In this document: one piece after another, positions 23,857 to 30,964 of the stretch | Numbering within the stretch: the first letter of the stretch is position 1 | How the letters are laid out: each line of letters opens with the position of its first letter | DNA from: Bacteroidota bacterium | GTDB taxonomy: Bacteria > Bacteroidota > Ignavibacteria > Kryptoniales > JAKASW01 | DNA: 64,000 nucleotides | Assembly: GCA_021845665.1 (NCBI GenBank) | Contig: JAJZVO010000021.1 | Span: forward strand, 1,289-65,288 | Direction of reading: 5' to 3' | The notes under the pieces: model-generated | Databases searched by the model: none | The model's input: the letters and a program-made list of their open reading frames with translations, nothing else | What the model was told of the DNA's origin: nothing | Program-made: the position numbers and the translations under genes

Positions 23857-24933
23857 TTGAGCGACTCAATTATTATGTGGGAAAGCCTTGCGTGGGCCGT
23901 CGGAGCGCTTGTCGTAGCAGTACTGGGCAGCTTAATCGCACATAGGGTGGTGTTTGCAGTGCTCTCCAGGATTACAAAGGGGACCACGAATAGGGTGGAT
24001 GCTTCTCTGGTTCGGCATTCGAAGAAACCGGCAAAGCTTCTTCTACCTCTTATCGGGATCATACTCGTCATGCCTGTCCTCCAATTATCGCCTGAAGTAC
24101 GTGCCGCCGTAAATCACATCATTGGACTACTTATCATTGCGTCGATGGCCTGGCTCTCGATCGCCATGACCAGCGTCTTTTCCGACGTGATTGCCGCGAA
24201 GTATGATGTGACTGTCAAAGATAACTTGACGGCAAGGAGAGTGCAGACCCAGGTCCATGTCCTAAGGAGGATTCTGGTAGTCGTGATAGTCACAATCTCC
24301 GTTTCGGTCATGCTGATGACATTCCCGGAAATAAGGAGCATCGGTGCGGGTCTTTTCGCGTCAGCGGGAATTGCCGGACTGATAATCGGCATGGCGGCAA
24401 GGCCGACTCTCTCCAATCTCATTGCAGGTATCCAGATGGCTTTGACGGAGCCCATAAGGCTCGATGACGTCGTAATCGTCGAAGGTGAATGGGGATGGAT
24501 AGAGGAAATAGGCACGACTTACGTGGTGGTCAGGATCTGGGACCTCAGGAGACTGGTCGTTCCCCTCTCCTATTTCATAGAAAAGCCTTTCCAAAACTGG
24601 ACAAGGAGGTCCGCCGATCTCCTGGGCACAGTTTTTATTTATACCGATTACACAATACCTGTTGATGAAATCCGGGCGGAGCTTCACTCCTCGCTTCAGT
24701 CTTCCTCGCGATGGGATGGGAAGGTCTGGGGTTTACAAGTGACAAATGCCACAGAACAGACTCTCGAATTGAGGGCTTTAATGAGTGCCAGGGATTCGAG
24801 CACGGCATGGGATCTCAGGTGTGAAATTCGGGAAAAGCTGATAAAGTTTCTCCAGGAAAAGTACCCGGGCTCACTTCCGAAGGTGCGCGCGGAATTCAGG
24901 CAGAACGCAAGAAGCGGGGAAACAGCAGCGTGA
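23857..24933 (+). CDS. Mechanosensitive ion channel (MscS family)
   Basis: TTG start after AAGGAG. Several N-terminal TM helices, then LSNLIAGIQMALTEPIRLDDVVIVEGEWGWIEEIGTTYVVVRIWD, the MscS pore-helix/beta-domain signature. Confidence 0.85.
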   Translation: MSDSIIMWESLAWAVGALVVAVLGSLIAHRVVFAVLSRITKGTTNRVDASLVRHSKKPAKLLLPLIGIILVMPVLQLSPEVRAAVNHIIGLLIIASMAWLSIAMTSVFSDVIAAKYDVTVKDNLTARRVQTQVHVLRRILVVVIVTISVSVMLMTFPEIRSIGAGLFASAGIAGLIIGMAARPTLSNLIAGIQMALTEPIRLDDVVIVEGEWGWIEEIGTTYVVVRIWDLRRLVVPLSYFIEKPFQNWTRRSADLLGTVFIYTDYTIPVDEIRAELHSSLQSSSRWDGKVWGLQVTNATEQTLELRALMSARDSSTAWDLRCEIREKLIKFLQEKYPGSLPKVRAEFRQNARSGETAA

Positions 24934-25070
24934 ATTGGCAATCCCTTTTTAGAAAATAGCTTTTCTTTCGGGCGTAATTCCCGGAACAAATACCAATCCG
25001 GGACTGTTGTATGAGTCACTCGACACATTGTCACAAACTAACAGAGATGCCACGAACCATATATGACTAA

Positions 25071-25961
25071 GTGATTCTACTACTTTCCTGCTGGCTGATC
25101 CTTTCACCGAATCACCCCGCTTCTTTGGATTCCGCTTCTTCTGCTACCGCTACAAGCGTGAAGGTGGCAGTCGTGTCGGGTGCTCACGGAGGGAAATCGT
25201 CTGTATCTGCAGACAAGACCGAGGCAACTCAGGTTCGCCCGGTGGTTTTTCTTCACGCAAAGAAACCTCTCCTCACCCCCGTTGAAATGATAGGTGGAGG
25301 TTTGGCTATAACATACGGTCTCTTCGAGACGGACGATGAAGTCTACGAGACCCTTAGGGGCATAAGGATGAGAAGCTCGGTGCTTTCCGCCGTAAGCCCG
25401 GTGGTAAGCATGATGGGCCTCGGTACGTTTTCCATCGCGCTCTTCGGAGGATTCTACGCCTACCATTTTGTGACGGGCGACGCAACGTCCCTTCGCGCAG
25501 CAAACCTCGGAATGGAAACTTTCCTTTTCAGCGGCATATCGACACAAATCCTGAAGAATCTGTTCGGCCGTGAAAGACCGAGCATGCGGACCAGGGAGGG
25601 AGGCCGGTGGAGCGGACCGCTGTCTTATTTTGAGCACAGTGACAACGGTAGCAAAAGCATAGCGAGCTACGATGCCTTCCCATCGGGGCATACTGCGACT
25701 ATCTTCGCAGCTGCTTCCACCATTGCTGATACATATCGTGGGACGTGGGTCCCGTACGTTGCATACGGCACCGCGACCATCGTCGGTATCTCCCGCGTTA
25801 TGGAAAGCGCTCATTGGCCGAGCGATGTCTTCGTTGGTGCGATCATCGGCATCGGGAGCACCAAGATCGTCGAGAATCTTCCCTTCAACAAGCACAGGGC
25901 GAAAATCAGGCTCGGAGTCGTCAACCATTCCCTGGGCGCAACCCTAAGCGTGGATTTTTGA
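25071..25961 (+). CDS. PAP2-superfamily phosphatase (membrane)
   Basis: The three PAP2 motifs are present: KNLFGRERPS, PSGH, SRVMESAHWPSDV. Listed GTG start; the start is uncertain. Confidence 0.8.
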   Translation: MILLLSCWLILSPNHPASLDSASSATATSVKVAVVSGAHGGKSSVSADKTEATQVRPVVFLHAKKPLLTPVEMIGGGLAITYGLFETDDEVYETLRGIRMRSSVLSAVSPVVSMMGLGTFSIALFGGFYAYHFVTGDATSLRAANLGMETFLFSGISTQILKNLFGRERPSMRTREGGRWSGPLSYFEHSDNGSKSIASYDAFPSGHTATIFAAASTIADTYRGTWVPYVAYGTATIVGISRVMESAHWPSDVFVGAIIGIGSTKIVENLPFNKHRAKIRLGVVNHSLGATLSVDF

Positions 25962-26361
25962 GAAGTATCTGCTGAGCGAAGGGGCTCTCAGCGAAAACCG
26001 TGTCCAATAGCTCATTAGTCGGATGACCAGAATGTCCGGCTGATCGAACGGGCGGTCTCCGAGATCCGATCGTAAACTGGTGCTTCCCCTCCGGGAAATC
26101 GAACGCACATGATTTCATATTCACATCATCCCGACACTTCCGTGGAAGCCGAGCGATCGGTCACATAAGTCTGCCTGTAATCCCGAGACCATCCGGCAAG
26201 CGGCGTGATTGGAACCGGCGTCACTATATAACTTCCCATTGCTCCTGCCGTGCCGCGGCACCGGTTCGAAAGCGCGGGCGAGGATGCCGCCGGGCGTTGT
26301 CGCGGACGACTCGAGACGGGGTGTCGAGCACGACCGTCTCCTTCGCGCTGTACCACTTTGC

Positions 26362-26389
26362 TTGACATTTGAGAAGAAACAATTATATT
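26362..26389 (+). promoter_or_regulatory. Sigma-70-like promoter candidate for the ATP-grasp/GNAT/KamA operon
   Basis: TTGACA (26362-26367), a 16-nt spacer, then TATATT (26384-26389), about 60 nt upstream of ATG 26451. Confidence 0.5.
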
Positions 26390-26450
26390 AAACGCAAATG
26401 ATGGGCGCTTCGCCAACATACATGAAGTCGAACTTGACACGCGAAACCGT

Positions 26451-27515
26451 ATGAATGTTGCTCTTGTCTTTAACCAGAAAAGAGAGAGCATGCTCATCGA
26501 CAATCCTCAATCTCATCCCCACTCTTCTCTCCTCAACACAGCAACAGCCCCAGAGAAAGTAGCGGACATGTACGCCGAATGGGATACTCCCGAAACGATC
26601 AATGCTGTCGCCCGGGCGTTGTCTCTTTTTCATAACGTGACGATGATCGAGGCGGACGAGTATGCCTTCGAGAAGTTGCGCACGGCGAAGTTTGACATCG
26701 TCTTCAACATTGCTGAAGGGATGAATGGGGTAACTCGTGAGGCTCAGCTTCCCGCCATGTTCGAGTTTCTCGGGATACCTTACACTGGTTCGGACCCACT
26801 CACGCTTGCCATCAGTCTCGACAAGGCAAGAACGAAGGAAGTCTTAAGTTATCACGGCATCCCGACTGCCAGGTTTGTTGTTGCGCATTCATTTGAGGAA
26901 GCCTCGACGGCTTCTTTGCGCTTTCCACTCTTTGTTAAGCCGCTGCACGAAGGCTCGAGCAAGGGAATTTACAACTCTTCCTACGTTACGACGCCCGAAG
27001 CCCTGAGGCAGGAGGTAGAACGAATACTCAACAATTACGAACAGCCAGCGCTTGTGGAGGAGTATCTCCCCGGAAGGGAGTTCACCGTCGCACTGCTTGG
27101 TAATGGGAGCGAATTGAAAGTCTTCCCGCCCGTGGAATTAAATTTCAGTTCACTGCCATCAGAAGCACTGCCGGTCTATTCTTACGAAGCCAAGTGGCTC
27201 TGGGACACCAAGAATTCTCCGATCGAAGTGTTCAAGTGTCCGGCGCCGATTGATGCAGCGCTCAATGCCAAGATCGAGAGAATTTGCCGGAAGACCTTCG
27301 GAGTTCTTAAGTGCCGGGATTGGAGCCGGATCGACGTCAGGCTTGACGCGGCCGGCGAGCCGAATGTACTGGAGATCAATCCCTTACCCGGAATATTGCC
27401 CGACCCTGAAGAACATTCCTGTTTTCCCATGGCATCCAGAGCGGCAGGACTGACTTATGATGAAATGATCAATGCAGTCCTCGACACGGCAACCAAAAGG
27501 CTCGGCAAGGTATAG
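26451..27515 (+). CDS. ATP-grasp ligase, D-Ala-D-Ala-ligase-like family but lacking the canonical Ddl N-terminal motif (paralog 1)
   Basis: ATP-grasp blocks LDKARTKEVL, FPLFVKPLHEGSSKGI, EEYLPGREFTVALLGN, CRDWSRIDVRLD and VLEINPLPG. The N-terminus MNVALVFNQKRE...EWDTPETINAVARAL lacks the GG.S.EHEVS motif of genuine Ddl. Confidence 0.8.
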   Translation: MNVALVFNQKRESMLIDNPQSHPHSSLLNTATAPEKVADMYAEWDTPETINAVARALSLFHNVTMIEADEYAFEKLRTAKFDIVFNIAEGMNGVTREAQLPAMFEFLGIPYTGSDPLTLAISLDKARTKEVLSYHGIPTARFVVAHSFEEASTASLRFPLFVKPLHEGSSKGIYNSSYVTTPEALRQEVERILNNYEQPALVEEYLPGREFTVALLGNGSELKVFPPVELNFSSLPSEALPVYSYEAKWLWDTKNSPIEVFKCPAPIDAALNAKIERICRKTFGVLKCRDWSRIDVRLDAAGEPNVLEINPLPGILPDPEEHSCFPMASRAAGLTYDEMINAVLDTATKRLGKV

Positions 27516-27556
27516 TTCGTAACTTCCAGTATTTGTTGAACTTATAGAGACGGCTT

Positions 27557-28627
27557 ATGCCAAAGAAAAAAAAGATAGCTGTCGTTTACGACGAAGGCGC
27601 CCTGGACATCAGTTCCGAGGTCCAACTGGCCCTAAATGGCAAATCTGAGCCTGAAGGGAAAATTTCCCATCGAGATACCTCTTTAACCAGTGTGATCGAA
27701 CAGGTCGACACCATCGTTGAAGTGCTAACTGAGTCGGGGTACAACGTCTCGACTCTTCTTGCGGGTGCGGATATCGGCAAGCTCATGGATAGACTCCGCG
27801 AAGACAAGCCCGACTTGATTTTCAATTTCTGCGAGGCTATCGAAGATAACTCATTTCAAGAGATGAATGTTGCCGGTCTCTATGAACTTCTTGGCATGAG
27901 ATATACCGGCAGTGGACCGCTCACGCTTGGAAGCTGTCTCAACAAAGTCAGAACCAAGGAAGTGCTCTCCTTTCATAAGCTGAACATAGCGCCCTTTCGT
28001 GTTTTCAATTCGCCCGATGAAGTGCTGAGAAAGAAGATGGCGTTCCCGGTGATAGCGAAGCCGATACATGAAGATGCGAGTGCTGGAATAACGAATGCTT
28101 CGGTTGTGTACGATCGTGACCATCTGCAGTCTCTTTTGGCAGAGATGCTCAAGAAGTTCAACCAGCCTATCCTGGTTGAGCAGTACATTGAAGGAAGGGA
28201 GTTCAACGTTGCGATCGTCGGAAACGAGGAACTTGTCGCGCTTCCTGTCTCGGAAATAGATTTCAGCACGATGCCGGAAGGCTTTCATCACATAGTATCT
28301 TACGAAGCGAAGTGGATGCCTGAAACCGTCGAATACAAGTCCACCGTACCGATATGCCCGGCAAAGATCAACCAGCGGATGCAGAAGAAAATTCAAAACA
28401 CCGCCATAAGAGCATACGAGGTGATGGGGTGCAGAGATTACGCCAGAGTCGACATGCGCGTCGACAAAGCCGGAAGGGTATTTGTGCTTGAGGTCAATTC
28501 CAATCCCGATCTTTCACCGGGAGAGTCCGGATTTGCTCGAAGTGCAGGGGCTTTTGGCTGGACGTACAGCCAGCTTATCAACAACATTGTCGAATCAGCC
28601 TTTAAGAGGAGCGTTGGTACGTATTAG
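27557..28627 (+). CDS. ATP-grasp ligase, D-Ala-D-Ala-ligase-like family (paralog 2)
   Basis: 41 nt after paralog 1 and collinear with it: LNKVRTKEVL, FPVIAKPIHEDASAGI, EQYIEGREFNVAIVGN, CRDYARVDMRVD, VLEVNSNPD. It has no Ddl N-terminal motif either. Confidence 0.8.
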   Translation: MPKKKKIAVVYDEGALDISSEVQLALNGKSEPEGKISHRDTSLTSVIEQVDTIVEVLTESGYNVSTLLAGADIGKLMDRLREDKPDLIFNFCEAIEDNSFQEMNVAGLYELLGMRYTGSGPLTLGSCLNKVRTKEVLSFHKLNIAPFRVFNSPDEVLRKKMAFPVIAKPIHEDASAGITNASVVYDRDHLQSLLAEMLKKFNQPILVEQYIEGREFNVAIVGNEELVALPVSEIDFSTMPEGFHHIVSYEAKWMPETVEYKSTVPICPAKINQRMQKKIQNTAIRAYEVMGCRDYARVDMRVDKAGRVFVLEVNSNPDLSPGESGFARSAGAFGWTYSQLINNIVESAFKRSVGTY

Positions 28628-29093
28628 ACCAACTGTCAGGGAAGATCATCCCCTGATACTGGACATCCTCAAGAGGACGGATTATTTCACACCGGCCGAA
28701 GTAGAGATCGCAGATGAGCTGCTCAATTCCTATTTCGATGACTCCCTTGAAAGCGGATACTGGACTTATACGGCCGAATCCGACGGAGTCGCCGGTTATG
28801 TCTGTTACGGCCCGACGCCTTTGACTGAGGGAACGTACGATATTTATTGGATTGCCGTCGACCCGAACCAACAGGGAAAGAAGATAGGCACGGAGCTGCT
28901 CCACTTTGCAGAGAAAGACATAGCGGAGCACAAGGGGAGACTCATAACGGTTTACACGAGTTCACAGGAGAAATACGGCTCCACCAGGAGTTTTTATCTT
29001 AAGCGGGGCTATCACGAAGGATGTAGAATAAAGGACTACTACCGACGCGGAGACGACCTCGTGGTCTATGTTAAACAAATATCGGAGGACTAA
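28614..29093 (+). CDS. Small GNAT-family N-acetyltransferase (~159 aa)
   Basis: The ORF frame is open from 28482. The most plausible start is TTG 28614, just after AAGAGGAG, overlapping the upstream stop by 14 nt. The GNAT core is YWIAVDPNQQGKKIGTELLHFAEKDI...TRSFYLKRGY. The exact start is uncertain. Confidence 0.75.
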   Translation: MVRIRPTVREDHPLILDILKRTDYFTPAEVEIADELLNSYFDDSLESGYWTYTAESDGVAGYVCYGPTPLTEGTYDIYWIAVDPNQQGKKIGTELLHFAEKDIAEHKGRLITVYTSSQEKYGSTRSFYLKRGYHEGCRIKDYYRRGDDLVVYVKQISED

Positions 29094-29096
29094 TTT

Positions 29097-30281
29097 ATGG
29101 AACTGTGGCAGCAGATGCTGAGGCAGAGTATAGACAGTGCTGATGACCTTGTCAAGCGCTTCAACTTTGACAAAGAAACTGCCGAAAGGTTGAACAGCCT
29201 TTTCCACATCAGAATAAACCCGTACTATTTAAGCCTAATTCGCCATCCGGGCGACCCCATCTGGCTTCAATGCATCCCCGATGCGAAGGAGCTCGATGAT
29301 GACGGTCTTCCCGAAGACCCGCTGAATGAAGACGGTGATAGCCCGGTTCCAAGCATTACGCACCGATATCCCGACAGAGTCCTTTTTCTCGTTACCAGTC
29401 AATGCTCGATGTATTGCAGATTCTGCACGAGAAAAAGGAAAGTGAGTGATTCAAGCAAGATCAGCATGAGATACATCCAGGATGGATTGGACTACATTAA
29501 GGCTCATCCGGAAGTGAGAGACGTCATCGTGTCCGGAGGCGATCCTCTCATGCTTACAGATGTCATGCTCGAAAAAGTGCTGAAGGGCCTCCGTGAGATC
29601 CCGCACGTCGAGATTATCCGCGTGCATACGAAGATGCCCTGCGTTCTCCCGCAGAGAATTACTCCCGAACTCGTCGAGATGATGAAAAAGTACCAGCCGC
29701 TTTATGTTAATGTCCATTTCAATCATCCTTGGGAGGTCACTCCGGAAGCCAAGCAGGCGTGCAATCTTCTTGCCGATGCAGGCTTCCCGCTCGGGAACCA
29801 GATGGTTTTGATGAAAGGGGTGAACGACGATCCAGAAGTCGTGAAGGAGCTCAACCGCAAACTACTCATGATGAGAGTTCGGCCGTACTATATCTACCAG
29901 GCCGATATGGTGAAGAGCACGAACCACTTCAGGACCCCGATAAAGACCGGTCTGGAAATAATGGACAAGCTTCGCGGACACACGAGCGGACTTGCGGTTC
30001 CATACTTCGTGATAGATGCTCCAGGCGGAGGCGGTAAGATACCGATCCTTCCACAATACGTCCTCTATCACGACGAGCAGAAGATCGTCATTCGTAACTA
30101 CAAGTATGAGGTCTTCGAATATGACGAGATCACAGGACAGTCGAAGGCAGCACCGTCCGACGTCGACTCGAGGTTCCTGAGAAAATCGCCGGTTATCATA
30201 AGGGAGAGGCGCAGACGTGTGTCCAAGGCTAAGCGCCGGCAGGCCGTTAAGGTCAAAATAGAGAAGACGGTTCAAGAATAA
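29097..30281 (+). CDS. KamA-family radical-SAM aminomutase (lysine 2,3-aminomutase-like)
   Basis: ATG 3 nt after the GNAT stop. Radical-SAM cluster CSMYCRFCTRKR, SGGDPL, and the PLP-lysine block VIDAPGGGGKIPI. YYIYQADMV retains an Asp where lysine aminomutases have one (from memory). There is a strongly basic C-terminal tail, RERRRRVSKAKRRQAVKVKIEK. Confidence 0.9.
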   Translation: MELWQQMLRQSIDSADDLVKRFNFDKETAERLNSLFHIRINPYYLSLIRHPGDPIWLQCIPDAKELDDDGLPEDPLNEDGDSPVPSITHRYPDRVLFLVTSQCSMYCRFCTRKRKVSDSSKISMRYIQDGLDYIKAHPEVRDVIVSGGDPLMLTDVMLEKVLKGLREIPHVEIIRVHTKMPCVLPQRITPELVEMMKKYQPLYVNVHFNHPWEVTPEAKQACNLLADAGFPLGNQMVLMKGVNDDPEVVKELNRKLLMMRVRPYYIYQADMVKSTNHFRTPIKTGLEIMDKLRGHTSGLAVPYFVIDAPGGGGKIPILPQYVLYHDEQKIVIRNYKYEVFEYDEITGQSKAAPSDVDSRFLRKSPVIIRERRRRVSKAKRRQAVKVKIEKTVQE

Positions 30282-30291
30282 GCATATGAAT

Positions 30292-30324
30292 GGCTGTCCG
30301 GGCCAGTGCTTTGTCCGGACAGCC
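30292..30324 (+). terminator. Hairpin at the convergent junction after the KamA gene
   Basis: GGCTGTCCGG (30292-30301) pairs with CCGGACAGCC (30315-30324). There is no clear T tract on the plus strand. Confidence 0.5.
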
Positions 30325-30388: not shown

Positions 30389-30964
30389 TCAATTCGCCGA
30401 GCCGGCGAGTGCCGCGTAAATTGTGCTGTTCAACACCCCGTGTTTCAAAATCAACTTTCTACCGAGGACTATGTAATGGCTCCAAGCAATCACAGATATG
30501 AAAACGAATAAATCTCCCTTAAGATCCGAAATCGCGATACGTGGACCTTCATCGAGAACTATCTCCAATACTCCCGTGAATGCTGGCATTGTGCCGCGGC
30601 AAGCTTGGGTAGCGCAATTTTCTCTTTGAGGTAGACTCTCCTTACAGCAATAACACGATAACGGGAGATGTCGAGTAGAGGATTACTGCCGAAGTCACCG
30701 TCGTACATCTGACACCGTACAGGATTAAGAACTGATTCACTGGTATTGATATTAAGCCGGGATGCAGCGGTAGAGCGAGACCTCTTCCTCTATAGCTGAA
30801 TTTGGGTCTGGCATACAAAAGGTAGAGCAGATTGTCGAGCCTTAAATCAGAGCCCTGATGAAAGTGAGATTTGCGGCGGGGATTAATTGGGTGGCAGCGT
30901 TCGCGATTATGCAGGTGCCGCTCGAAAAGAATATCTGGATGATTAAGATTATGTAGGGGTTCAC
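30389..30964 (-). pseudogene. EamA/DMT-family transporter pseudogene (at least two frameshifts, a premature stop, 3' truncation)
   Basis: My own translation shows EamA-like segments in three different minus-strand frames. The first, from GTG 30964 (GTGA overlap with the upstream stop), reads NPYIILIIQIFFSSGTCIIANAATQLIPAANLTFIRALI then stops. The second, in the listed ORF 30642-30983, reads ...NQFLILYGVRCTTVTSAVILYSTSPVIVLLL then stops. The third, ORF 30389-30589, reads ...GDLFVFISVIAWSHYIVLGRKLILKHGVLNSTIYAALAGS then stops. The second EamA domain is missing. Confidence 0.7.

Follow-up and report, generated by a model that had tools for sequence, protein, structure and literature searches.

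An operon of four genes (positions 26451-30281, forward strand) lies within a 64,000-nt stretch of contig JAJZVO010000021.1 from a Bacteroidota bacterium (Ignavibacteria; Kryptoniales); the whole stretch is called the window here. The genes encode two ATP-grasp ligases (grA and grB), a small N-acetyltransferase of the GNAT superfamily (GNAT) and a KamA-family aminomutase (KamA), and we propose that this operon represents an old and widespread biosynthetic cassette in one of its versions. In the reading that we favor, and to which we give about even chances, the cassette makes a small molecule that contains beta-lysine and is reversibly N-acetylated, and that belongs to cationic-amine (polyamine-like) metabolism and not to dedicated salt protection. 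This reading draws on the linkage of KamA to the module in 79 of 94 well-flanked loci, a second gene order, the residues kept by KamA, the catalytic set of the ligases, fusions of grB to the GNAT, an HDAC-family partner and loci in which the module is associated with polyamine genes.

An earlier reading made from the sequence alone described four closely spaced genes on one strand, and the open reading frames (ORFs) bear this out. The first, grA (26451-27515), encodes an ATP-grasp ligase of 354 aa derived from D-alanine-D-alanine ligase (Ddl), with a variable segment inserted after strand beta-1 and an AEWD motif. After 41 nt it is followed by its paralog grB (27557-28627; 356 aa), in which the second-substrate loop is altered (G276 to D and S150 to A). 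The GNAT gene (28614-29093) shares 14 nt with the 3′ end of grB and begins with a TTG codon placed five bases 3′ of the Shine-Dalgarno sequence AAGAGGAG; its product of 159 aa matches Pfam Acetyltransf_1 and Acetyltransf_7. KamA (29097-30281), a radical S-adenosylmethionine (SAM)/pyridoxal phosphate (PLP) aminomutase of 394 aa, starts 3 nt beyond the GNAT stop codon.

Conservation and gene order

Three related contigs with differing flanks carry the identical four genes in the identical order. With a ligase profile, a scan of one genome per GTDB species gave 80 loci, and a metagenome scan gave 80 further loci. Nearly all of the 80 GTDB-species loci carry grA-grB-GNAT-KamA. The carriers in that scan include Ignavibacterium album, Melioribacter roseus, Rosettibacter primus, Stygiobacter electus and Kryptonia (Chrysopegis and Thermokryptus), with further ones in Aminicenantes, Calditrichaceae and Planctomycetota, and grA is 53-64% identical between representatives of different phyla. 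The well-flanked loci are those with at least 2 kb of sequence on both sides (n = 94). The exact order grA-grB-GNAT-KamA is found in 71 of them, from Ignavibacteriota, Kryptonia, Aminicenantes, Calditrichota and Planctomycetota, so the four-gene set is syntenic across phyla. An arginine decarboxylase stands in place of KamA in another 12.

A second order, KamA-grA-grB-GNAT, was found starting from GNATs that resemble the solved structure 2R7H. It occurs in Desulfovibrio mangrovi, in Pirellulales and in a metagenome contig, with a reduced form in Woeseia. The GNAT of the metagenome contig is 99% identical to 2R7H, and by this sequence the contig is probably Oleidesulfovibrio alaskensis. The grA proteins of the KamA-first loci form a separate deep clade, and minimal pairs of KamA and grA are also found (loci L129 and L131). 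KamA is therefore linked with the module in two gene orders, two deep grA clades and at least six phyla, and we regard this as strong evidence that the two are functionally coupled. In two Desulfovibrio-type loci a gene for a sigma-54 enhancer-binding protein (L173, 3874-5310; L170, 3857-5293) immediately precedes KamA-grA-grB-GNAT, which suggests sigma-54-dependent control in these two. A paper on the sigma-54 regulome of Desulfovibrio vulgaris mentions none of the cassette genes.

The core of the system is grA-grB-GNAT, which occurs also with polyamine genes replacing KamA. KamA is missing from 25 loci (Thermodesulfobacteriota-like), which form two pure clades within the KamA-last clade. In these loci a gene for a pyruvoyl arginine decarboxylase lies directly before grA, often with genes for agmatinase and for a protein like deoxyhypusine synthase (DHS). 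The variant cluster (L080, 2908-9822; L087, 6283-11669) reads (DHS-like SpeY)-(agmatinase)-pyruvoyl arginine decarboxylase-(301-aa ATP-grasp-like)-grA-grB-GNAT-methyltransferase-RimI-like GNAT, with RecJ upstream. Sets of SpeY, SpeB and arginine decarboxylase make homospermidine (PMC13625781). The same source does not mention ligases of the grA/grB type, and places no ATP-grasp ligase in any described polyamine cluster (PMC13625781). The 64-kb window contains no efp, arginine decarboxylase, agmatinase or DHS-like gene. We also note some polyamine-linked loci that lack both KamA and GNAT (L103, 11176-13732; L109, 11264-13851), where grB is followed by a 292-aa ORF, two paralogous glycosyltransferase-like genes and a methyltransferase gene.

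The enzymes of the cassette

The KamA of the window passes the cut-off of a single KamA-type model, the generic TIGR00238 (307.9 bits, cut-off 199.2). Its best score is against the AblA model TIGR03820, where 462 bits falls below the cut-off of 525.4. It is likewise below the cut-offs for glutamate 2,3-aminomutase (TIGR04368; 435.6 bits against 650), arginine 2,3-aminomutase (332 against 600) and EpmB (242.6 against 369.3), the last in agreement with the earlier view that it is not an EpmB. The linked KamAs of other phyla score 412-516 bits against AblA, always under the cut-off. Judged by these scores, the cluster-linked KamAs are a group that is related to AblA but distinct from it.

The protein aligns with the Clostridium lysine 2,3-aminomutase (LAM) 2A5H at an E value of 3e-120, gap-free across the active site. 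D270 and D307 of KamA correspond to D293 and D330 of 2A5H, and the arginine of its CTR motif to R134. In the published structure, Asp293 and Asp330 bind the epsilon-amino group of lysine and Arg134 the carboxylate; both aspartates are replaced in glutamate 2,3-aminomutase. The motifs and the two aspartates that had been picked out in the window are family-wide. In 2A5H numbering, C125, C129 and C132 of the CxxxCxxC cluster motif, R134, D293, D330 and the PLP-binding lysine K337 are 100% conserved in 105 cluster-linked KamAs. The inter-subunit zinc site of clostridial LAM comprises Cys268 and three C-terminal cysteines. All 105 linked KamAs lack the C-terminal cysteines and have D, N, S or K at position 268. 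KamA is thus predicted from its sequence to be a lysine 2,3-aminomutase without the zinc site of the clostridial enzyme.

The C-terminal tail of the window KamA is rich in Arg and Lys and had been singled out as unusual. Among the 105 linked homologs neither the length nor the sequence of the tail is constant, and its net charge ranges from -4 to +12. Because of this variability we take the basic tail to be lineage-specific low-complexity sequence, and have rejected it as a functional feature of the family.

The two ligases are 39% identical (E = 2e-68), which upholds their description as paralogs. The best Pfam match of both is Dala_Dala_lig_C (grA at 1e-35, grB with 127 bits), and their closest solved structures are all Ddl or Van ligases, with DdlB (1IOV and 2DLN) at 3.5e-35. 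Both are under every Ddl cut-off, scoring 192.9 (grA) and 169.4 bits (grB) against the curated value of 243. They are not of the RimK type; grA has no RimK match, and grB scores 26 bits against Pfam RimK. The L-amino-acid ligase 3VOT is matched by grB at 2e-10, against 1e-26 for Ddl.

We aligned 153 grA and 141 grB sequences with Escherichia coli DdlB, the numbering of which is used throughout for the ligases. K97, K144, E180, E187, K215, R255, D257, E270 and N272 are each at least 90% conserved in both sets. In addition grA keeps E15 (in AEWD), S150, S151, G276 and S281 alongside K215, R255, D257, E270 and N272. It differs from DdlB in the substitutions Y216 to W, H63 to E and L282 to C, and the N-terminal Gly-rich motif of Ddl is replaced by the variable insert. 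The sequence-only reading held that the N-terminal motif of Ddl is missing; this is correct for the Gly-rich part, but the equivalent of Glu15 survives in grA. In grB the ATP-binding and catalytic residues are kept, with Y216 to W in addition to the changes at G276 and S150. With Trp at position 216 in both paralogs, Glu at His63 in grA and no GGxSxE, the substrate site is not that of Ddl. Taken with the scores, this sustains the view that the ligases are not Ddl orthologs. Both look catalytically competent from their residues. The omega-loop, which in Ddl closes over small substrates, is also present in both and suggests enclosed small-molecule active sites.

The solved structure closest to the GNAT is its homolog 2R7H (E = 3e-34), a Desulfovibrio structural-genomics entry labelled 'putative D-alanine N-acetyltransferase' on which we found no paper. 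It has no match to an AblB model at E ≤ 0.01, in keeping with the earlier reading, and otherwise gives only weak matches to RimI-like and other GNATs. A search of 1.84 billion representative proteins with the GNAT as query returned 1433 relatives at E ≤ 1e-10, of which 56 reach E ≤ 1e-30. Among the best 150 there are 29 fusions of 487-624 aa (P0371, P0384, P0386, P0442 and 25 more representatives), with an ATP-grasp domain at the N terminus and a 2R7H-type GNAT at the C terminus. In every one of the 29 the ATP-grasp domain is nearer to grB than to grA, mostly with the grB-specific NPNPD loop. The fusion ties the acetyltransferase to grB.

A protein of the HDAC/acetylpolyamine-amidohydrolase family adjoins the cluster in Desulfovibrio mangrovi, one Calditrichaceae genome, Woeseia and one metagenome contig (L170, 9629-11386; L084, 9340-11082; L171, 7505-9001; L161, 3-1457). 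These are four distant lineages with four different arrangements, and the protein usually has an N-terminal GNAT-like domain (L170 and L084). The presence of such a partner suggests that the acetylation is reversible.

The proposed product and its alternatives

In the pathway that we propose, KamA would turn L-lysine into beta-lysine by radical-SAM/PLP chemistry, for which the residues are conserved. The two ligases would each form one amide bond via an acyl-phosphate intermediate. With its Glu15 equivalent and the Glu that replaces His63, grA would be suited to an acyl donor that is a diamino acid, beta-lysine for example, and the Asp in place of Gly276 in grB would suit a cationic amine as nucleophile. 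Working with grB, the GNAT would N-acetylate a free amino group on either the substrate or the product of grB, most plausibly one in the beta-lysine unit, and in some lineages an enzyme of the HDAC/acetylpolyamine-amidohydrolase type would reverse this. The product would be an N-acetylated beta-lysine di- or tripeptide-like compound with a charge that is switchable by acetylation. Carnosine synthase and the L-amino-acid ligases offer a parallel to the proposed chemistry, in which an ATP-grasp enzyme joins a beta-amino acid into a dipeptide, but they are only distantly related, as the match of grB to 3VOT indicates.

We place the compound in cationic-amine metabolism because the module adjoins genes of agmatine, putrescine and homospermidine metabolism in two clades, where it lies beside the arginine decarboxylase, agmatinase and SpeY genes of the homospermidine sets. 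The pairing of a GNAT with an HDAC-family protein in some cassette loci also resembles polyamine acetylation by SpeG-type GNATs and acetylpolyamine amidohydrolases. The cassette differs from the polyamine systems in that its usual partner is KamA and not a decarboxylase, and in its ATP-grasp ligases, which are absent from the described clusters (PMC13625781).

Several observations weigh against this reading. Three of the 94 well-flanked loci have neither KamA nor arginine decarboxylase. At the thresholds used there are no specificity positions that separate KamA-linked from polyamine-linked grA or grB. With no context-specific residues in the ligases, grA and grB probably use the same substrates in both settings, and we have set aside a substrate swap between the two as lacking support from the sequences. 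Either beta-lysine is not the shared ligase substrate, or its supply gene lies elsewhere in the genome. It is possible that the amine has been swapped without obvious residue changes, that beta-lysine and a polyamine are both substrates with only one supply gene clustered, or that the polyamine adjacency is synteny only. Moreover, the substrates assigned above are putative, being read from single residue changes. Placement of KamA with EpmB, orthology of the ligases with Ddl and a lack of synteny had been named in advance as outcomes fatal to the sequence-only reading, and none of these was found.

A bolder proposal, which we put forward tentatively as a possible but improbable extension, is that the product represents a new class of primary metabolite, namely a beta-lysine oligo-amide cation with a charge switch operated by the GNAT and the deacetylase, either replacing polyamines or conjugated to them. 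At the same low likelihood it would extend to Ignavibacteriota, Aminicenantes, Calditrichota, many Planctomycetota and Desulfovibrio. Such a role of the compound would account for the coupling of the ligase pair to KamA in some loci and to genes for arginine decarboxylase and homospermidine synthesis in others.

Of the alternatives to a product in cationic-amine metabolism, a dedicated compatible solute survives best, though we think it unlikely. The cassette would then make a salt-induced zwitterionic N-acetyl-beta-lysyl peptide that is accumulated for osmoprotection, like N-epsilon-acetyl-beta-lysine or N-acetylglutaminylglutamine amide (NAGGN). The AblA/AblB proteins form the N-epsilon-acetyl-beta-lysine osmolyte pathway of methanogens, annotated in some bacteria too. 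As in the cassette, a KamA-type lysine 2,3-aminomutase is found beside a GNAT, and AblA is the closest model for the window KamA. Yet the AblA cut-off is missed, the GNAT of 159 aa is like 2R7H and not of the AblB type, two ATP-grasp ligases are integral to the cassette, and its KamAs are without the zinc-site cysteines of LAM. The use of a GNAT and an ATP-grasp enzyme to form an N-acetylated small peptide is similar to that of Ngg and AsnO in the NAGGN pathway. We take Ngg to be a bifunctional GNAT and ATP-grasp protein with an AsnO-like amidotransferase partner, so the analogy drawn from the window sequence is strengthened by the recurrent grB-GNAT fusions. The differences are that the ATP-grasp part of the cassette is Ddl-derived (no homology comparison to Ngg was made), that its building block would be beta-lysine and not glutamine, and that the fusions have the ligase N-terminal and the GNAT C-terminal, the genes being separate in the window. 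Moreover, none of the loci inspected has a partner that resembles asparagine synthase.

The genomic context does not favor a compatible solute. An MscS channel gene (23857-24933) two genes upstream in the window, with a PAP2 phosphatase gene also upstream, had been cited for an osmolyte role. The adjacency is not conserved, since the upstream flank differs in relatives. In the close relative L001 (1870-4287) an XhoI-type restriction-modification pair and a Y1 transposase are found where the window (23857-25961) has MscS and PAP2, and we have ruled out MscS as functional context. The cassette is near-universal in Ignavibacteriota, and the habitats represented among its carriers are mostly groundwater, fens, lakes, soils, mines and hot springs. 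With these habitats and no conserved MscS neighbor, a dedicated salt-osmolyte role is left without contextual support. The polyamine genes and the deacetylase found with the module suggest a different role, and the sigma-54 activator directly upstream in Desulfovibrio is a further point against such a role.

A second alternative, which we consider improbable, is that the ligases modify a protein, for instance a translation factor or ribosomal protein, by attaching beta-lysine or a polyamine, much as EpmA/EpmB or RimK do. The donors known for the modification of EF-P and eIF5A are these two, beta-lysine and polyamines, and the module alternates between KamA and a context of DHS-like and arginine decarboxylase genes. 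The family is highly conserved, RimI-like genes lie nearby in the polyamine-linked loci, and the EpmB/EpmA system likewise couples a KamA-family source of beta-lysine to an ATP-dependent ligase. However, the cassette ligases are ATP-grasp enzymes and not paralogs of LysRS, the DHS-like genes are SpeY homospermidine enzymes, and the retained omega-loop is typical of enclosed small-substrate sites. The window lacks efp, neither efp nor an EpmA-like gene turned up among the recurrent neighbors, and the cluster contains no conserved target gene. Furthermore, the EF-P of Bacteroidota works unmodified according to a recent review (PMC12856214).

A role in envelope chemistry, in which the ligases would add beta-lysine or a different amine to peptidoglycan precursors or another envelope polymer, is a little less probable again. 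In its favor, the closest solved relatives of the ligases are all Ddl and Van ligases, the fold and catalytic residues are those of DdlB and VanA, and grA keeps almost every residue that binds D-Ala, including S281. Glycosyltransferases are also found 3′ of grB in some polyamine-linked loci. Against this, the cassette was found in a cell-wall gene cluster in none of about 170 loci, the two paralogs being set in an operon with KamA and the GNAT, and Mur-type partners are absent. Soluble amine metabolism is a better fit for the GNAT fusion and the HDAC partner.

Least probable of all is that KamA is a mere neighbor serving another need while grA, grB and GNAT make a product unrelated to beta-lysine; polyamine-linked and partner-free loci without KamA and the lack of context-specific ligase residues would allow this, but the linkage across phyla, gene orders and grA clades, the start and stop codons that overlap or lie a few bases apart, and the minimal KamA-grA pairs all speak against it.

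Promoter, flanks and wider significance

A sigma-70-type promoter, TTGACA-16-TATATT (26362-26389, forward strand), was reported upstream of grA in the sequence-only reading, and it matches the consensus at 11 of 12 positions. The match alone is weak evidence, because the region has 4 promoter-like sites where 3.8 are expected from shuffles, that is no excess, and because an equal 11/12 match (TTGACA-17-TATACT, 29127-29155, reverse strand) lies antisense in the 5′ end of kamA. The antisense match may be due to chance or may be an antisense promoter. When the upstream DNA of five relatives was aligned, the conserved islands were the promoter, 26348-26361 and 26423-26433, the remainder being unalignable. 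Both promoter hexamers are invariant in the five relatives. From the conservation of these islands amid otherwise unalignable DNA, there is good evidence that TTGACA-16-TATATT is a real promoter.

The 14-nt block directly upstream of the -35 hexamer (26348-26361, forward strand), CTGTACCACTTTGC, has one mismatch among five sequences and may be a regulator-binding or UP-like element. The second block, TGAAGTCGAAC (26423-26433, forward strand), comprises 11 nt of the 5′ untranslated region that are kept in the five relatives, and may be a regulator-binding or leader element. No Rfam family of riboswitch or leader RNA was found upstream of grA at E ≤ 1, and neither the operon nor the DNA before it has space for a conserved small ORF. 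The hairpin noted 3′ of the kamA stop codon is present (30292-30324, forward strand), with a 12-bp stem, a folding energy of -23.7 kcal/mol and z = -3.46. It is followed by no U-tract, and is therefore not a canonical intrinsic terminator.

Beyond the hairpin lies the remnant of an EamA-family transporter gene (30395-30964, reverse strand). It was correctly described as frameshifted and 3′-truncated, and consists of residues 1-195 of 307 in three pieces and two frames. The relatives L001, L008, L082 and L009 have an intact copy there, and nothing links EamA to the cluster. In 19 of the Ignavibacteriota-like loci (L003, 9228-9803, and 18 others) there is a 191-aa membrane protein 3′ of kamA, with a HEAGH metalloprotease-like motif and no Pfam match. 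RecG lies upstream of the cluster in 49 of 80 loci, in more distant relatives. We have discarded RecG, DnaG, GpsA/PlsY, an M24 peptidase and the HEAGH protein as partners, and treat them as synteny, each being confined to sub-lineages.

A recent acquisition of the operon had been suggested, in part from a left flank that looked GC-rich. The non-coding DNA of that flank is 55% GC against 51% for the window, which is not striking. The GC content of the cluster (50.4%) is close to that of the window (51.3%), and the cassette is conserved across Ignavibacteriota with RecG or DnaG neighbors. These two observations contradict recent horizontal acquisition, which we reject.

All of the enzymes are of known families and the chemistry resembles that of the GNAT plus ATP-grasp and beta-lysine pathways, so the system is not categorically new. 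In literature searches, by full text and direct look-ups, we found no description of this gene combination, its conservation throughout phyla, the fusions, the deacetylase partners or the alternation with polyamine genes.

The cassette is present in whole phyla. Its cultured carriers include Melioribacter roseus, Ignavibacterium album, Rosettibacter, Stygiobacter and Desulfovibrio mangrovi, and likely Oleidesulfovibrio alaskensis. If our reading is true, a function would be assigned to many genes now annotated as 'D-alanine--D-alanine ligase', 'RimI-like acetyltransferase' or 'lysine 2,3-aminomutase', and the orphan structure 2R7H would gain one also. The alternation of KamA with polyamine genes hints at an unexplored physiological link between beta-lysine and the polyamines.

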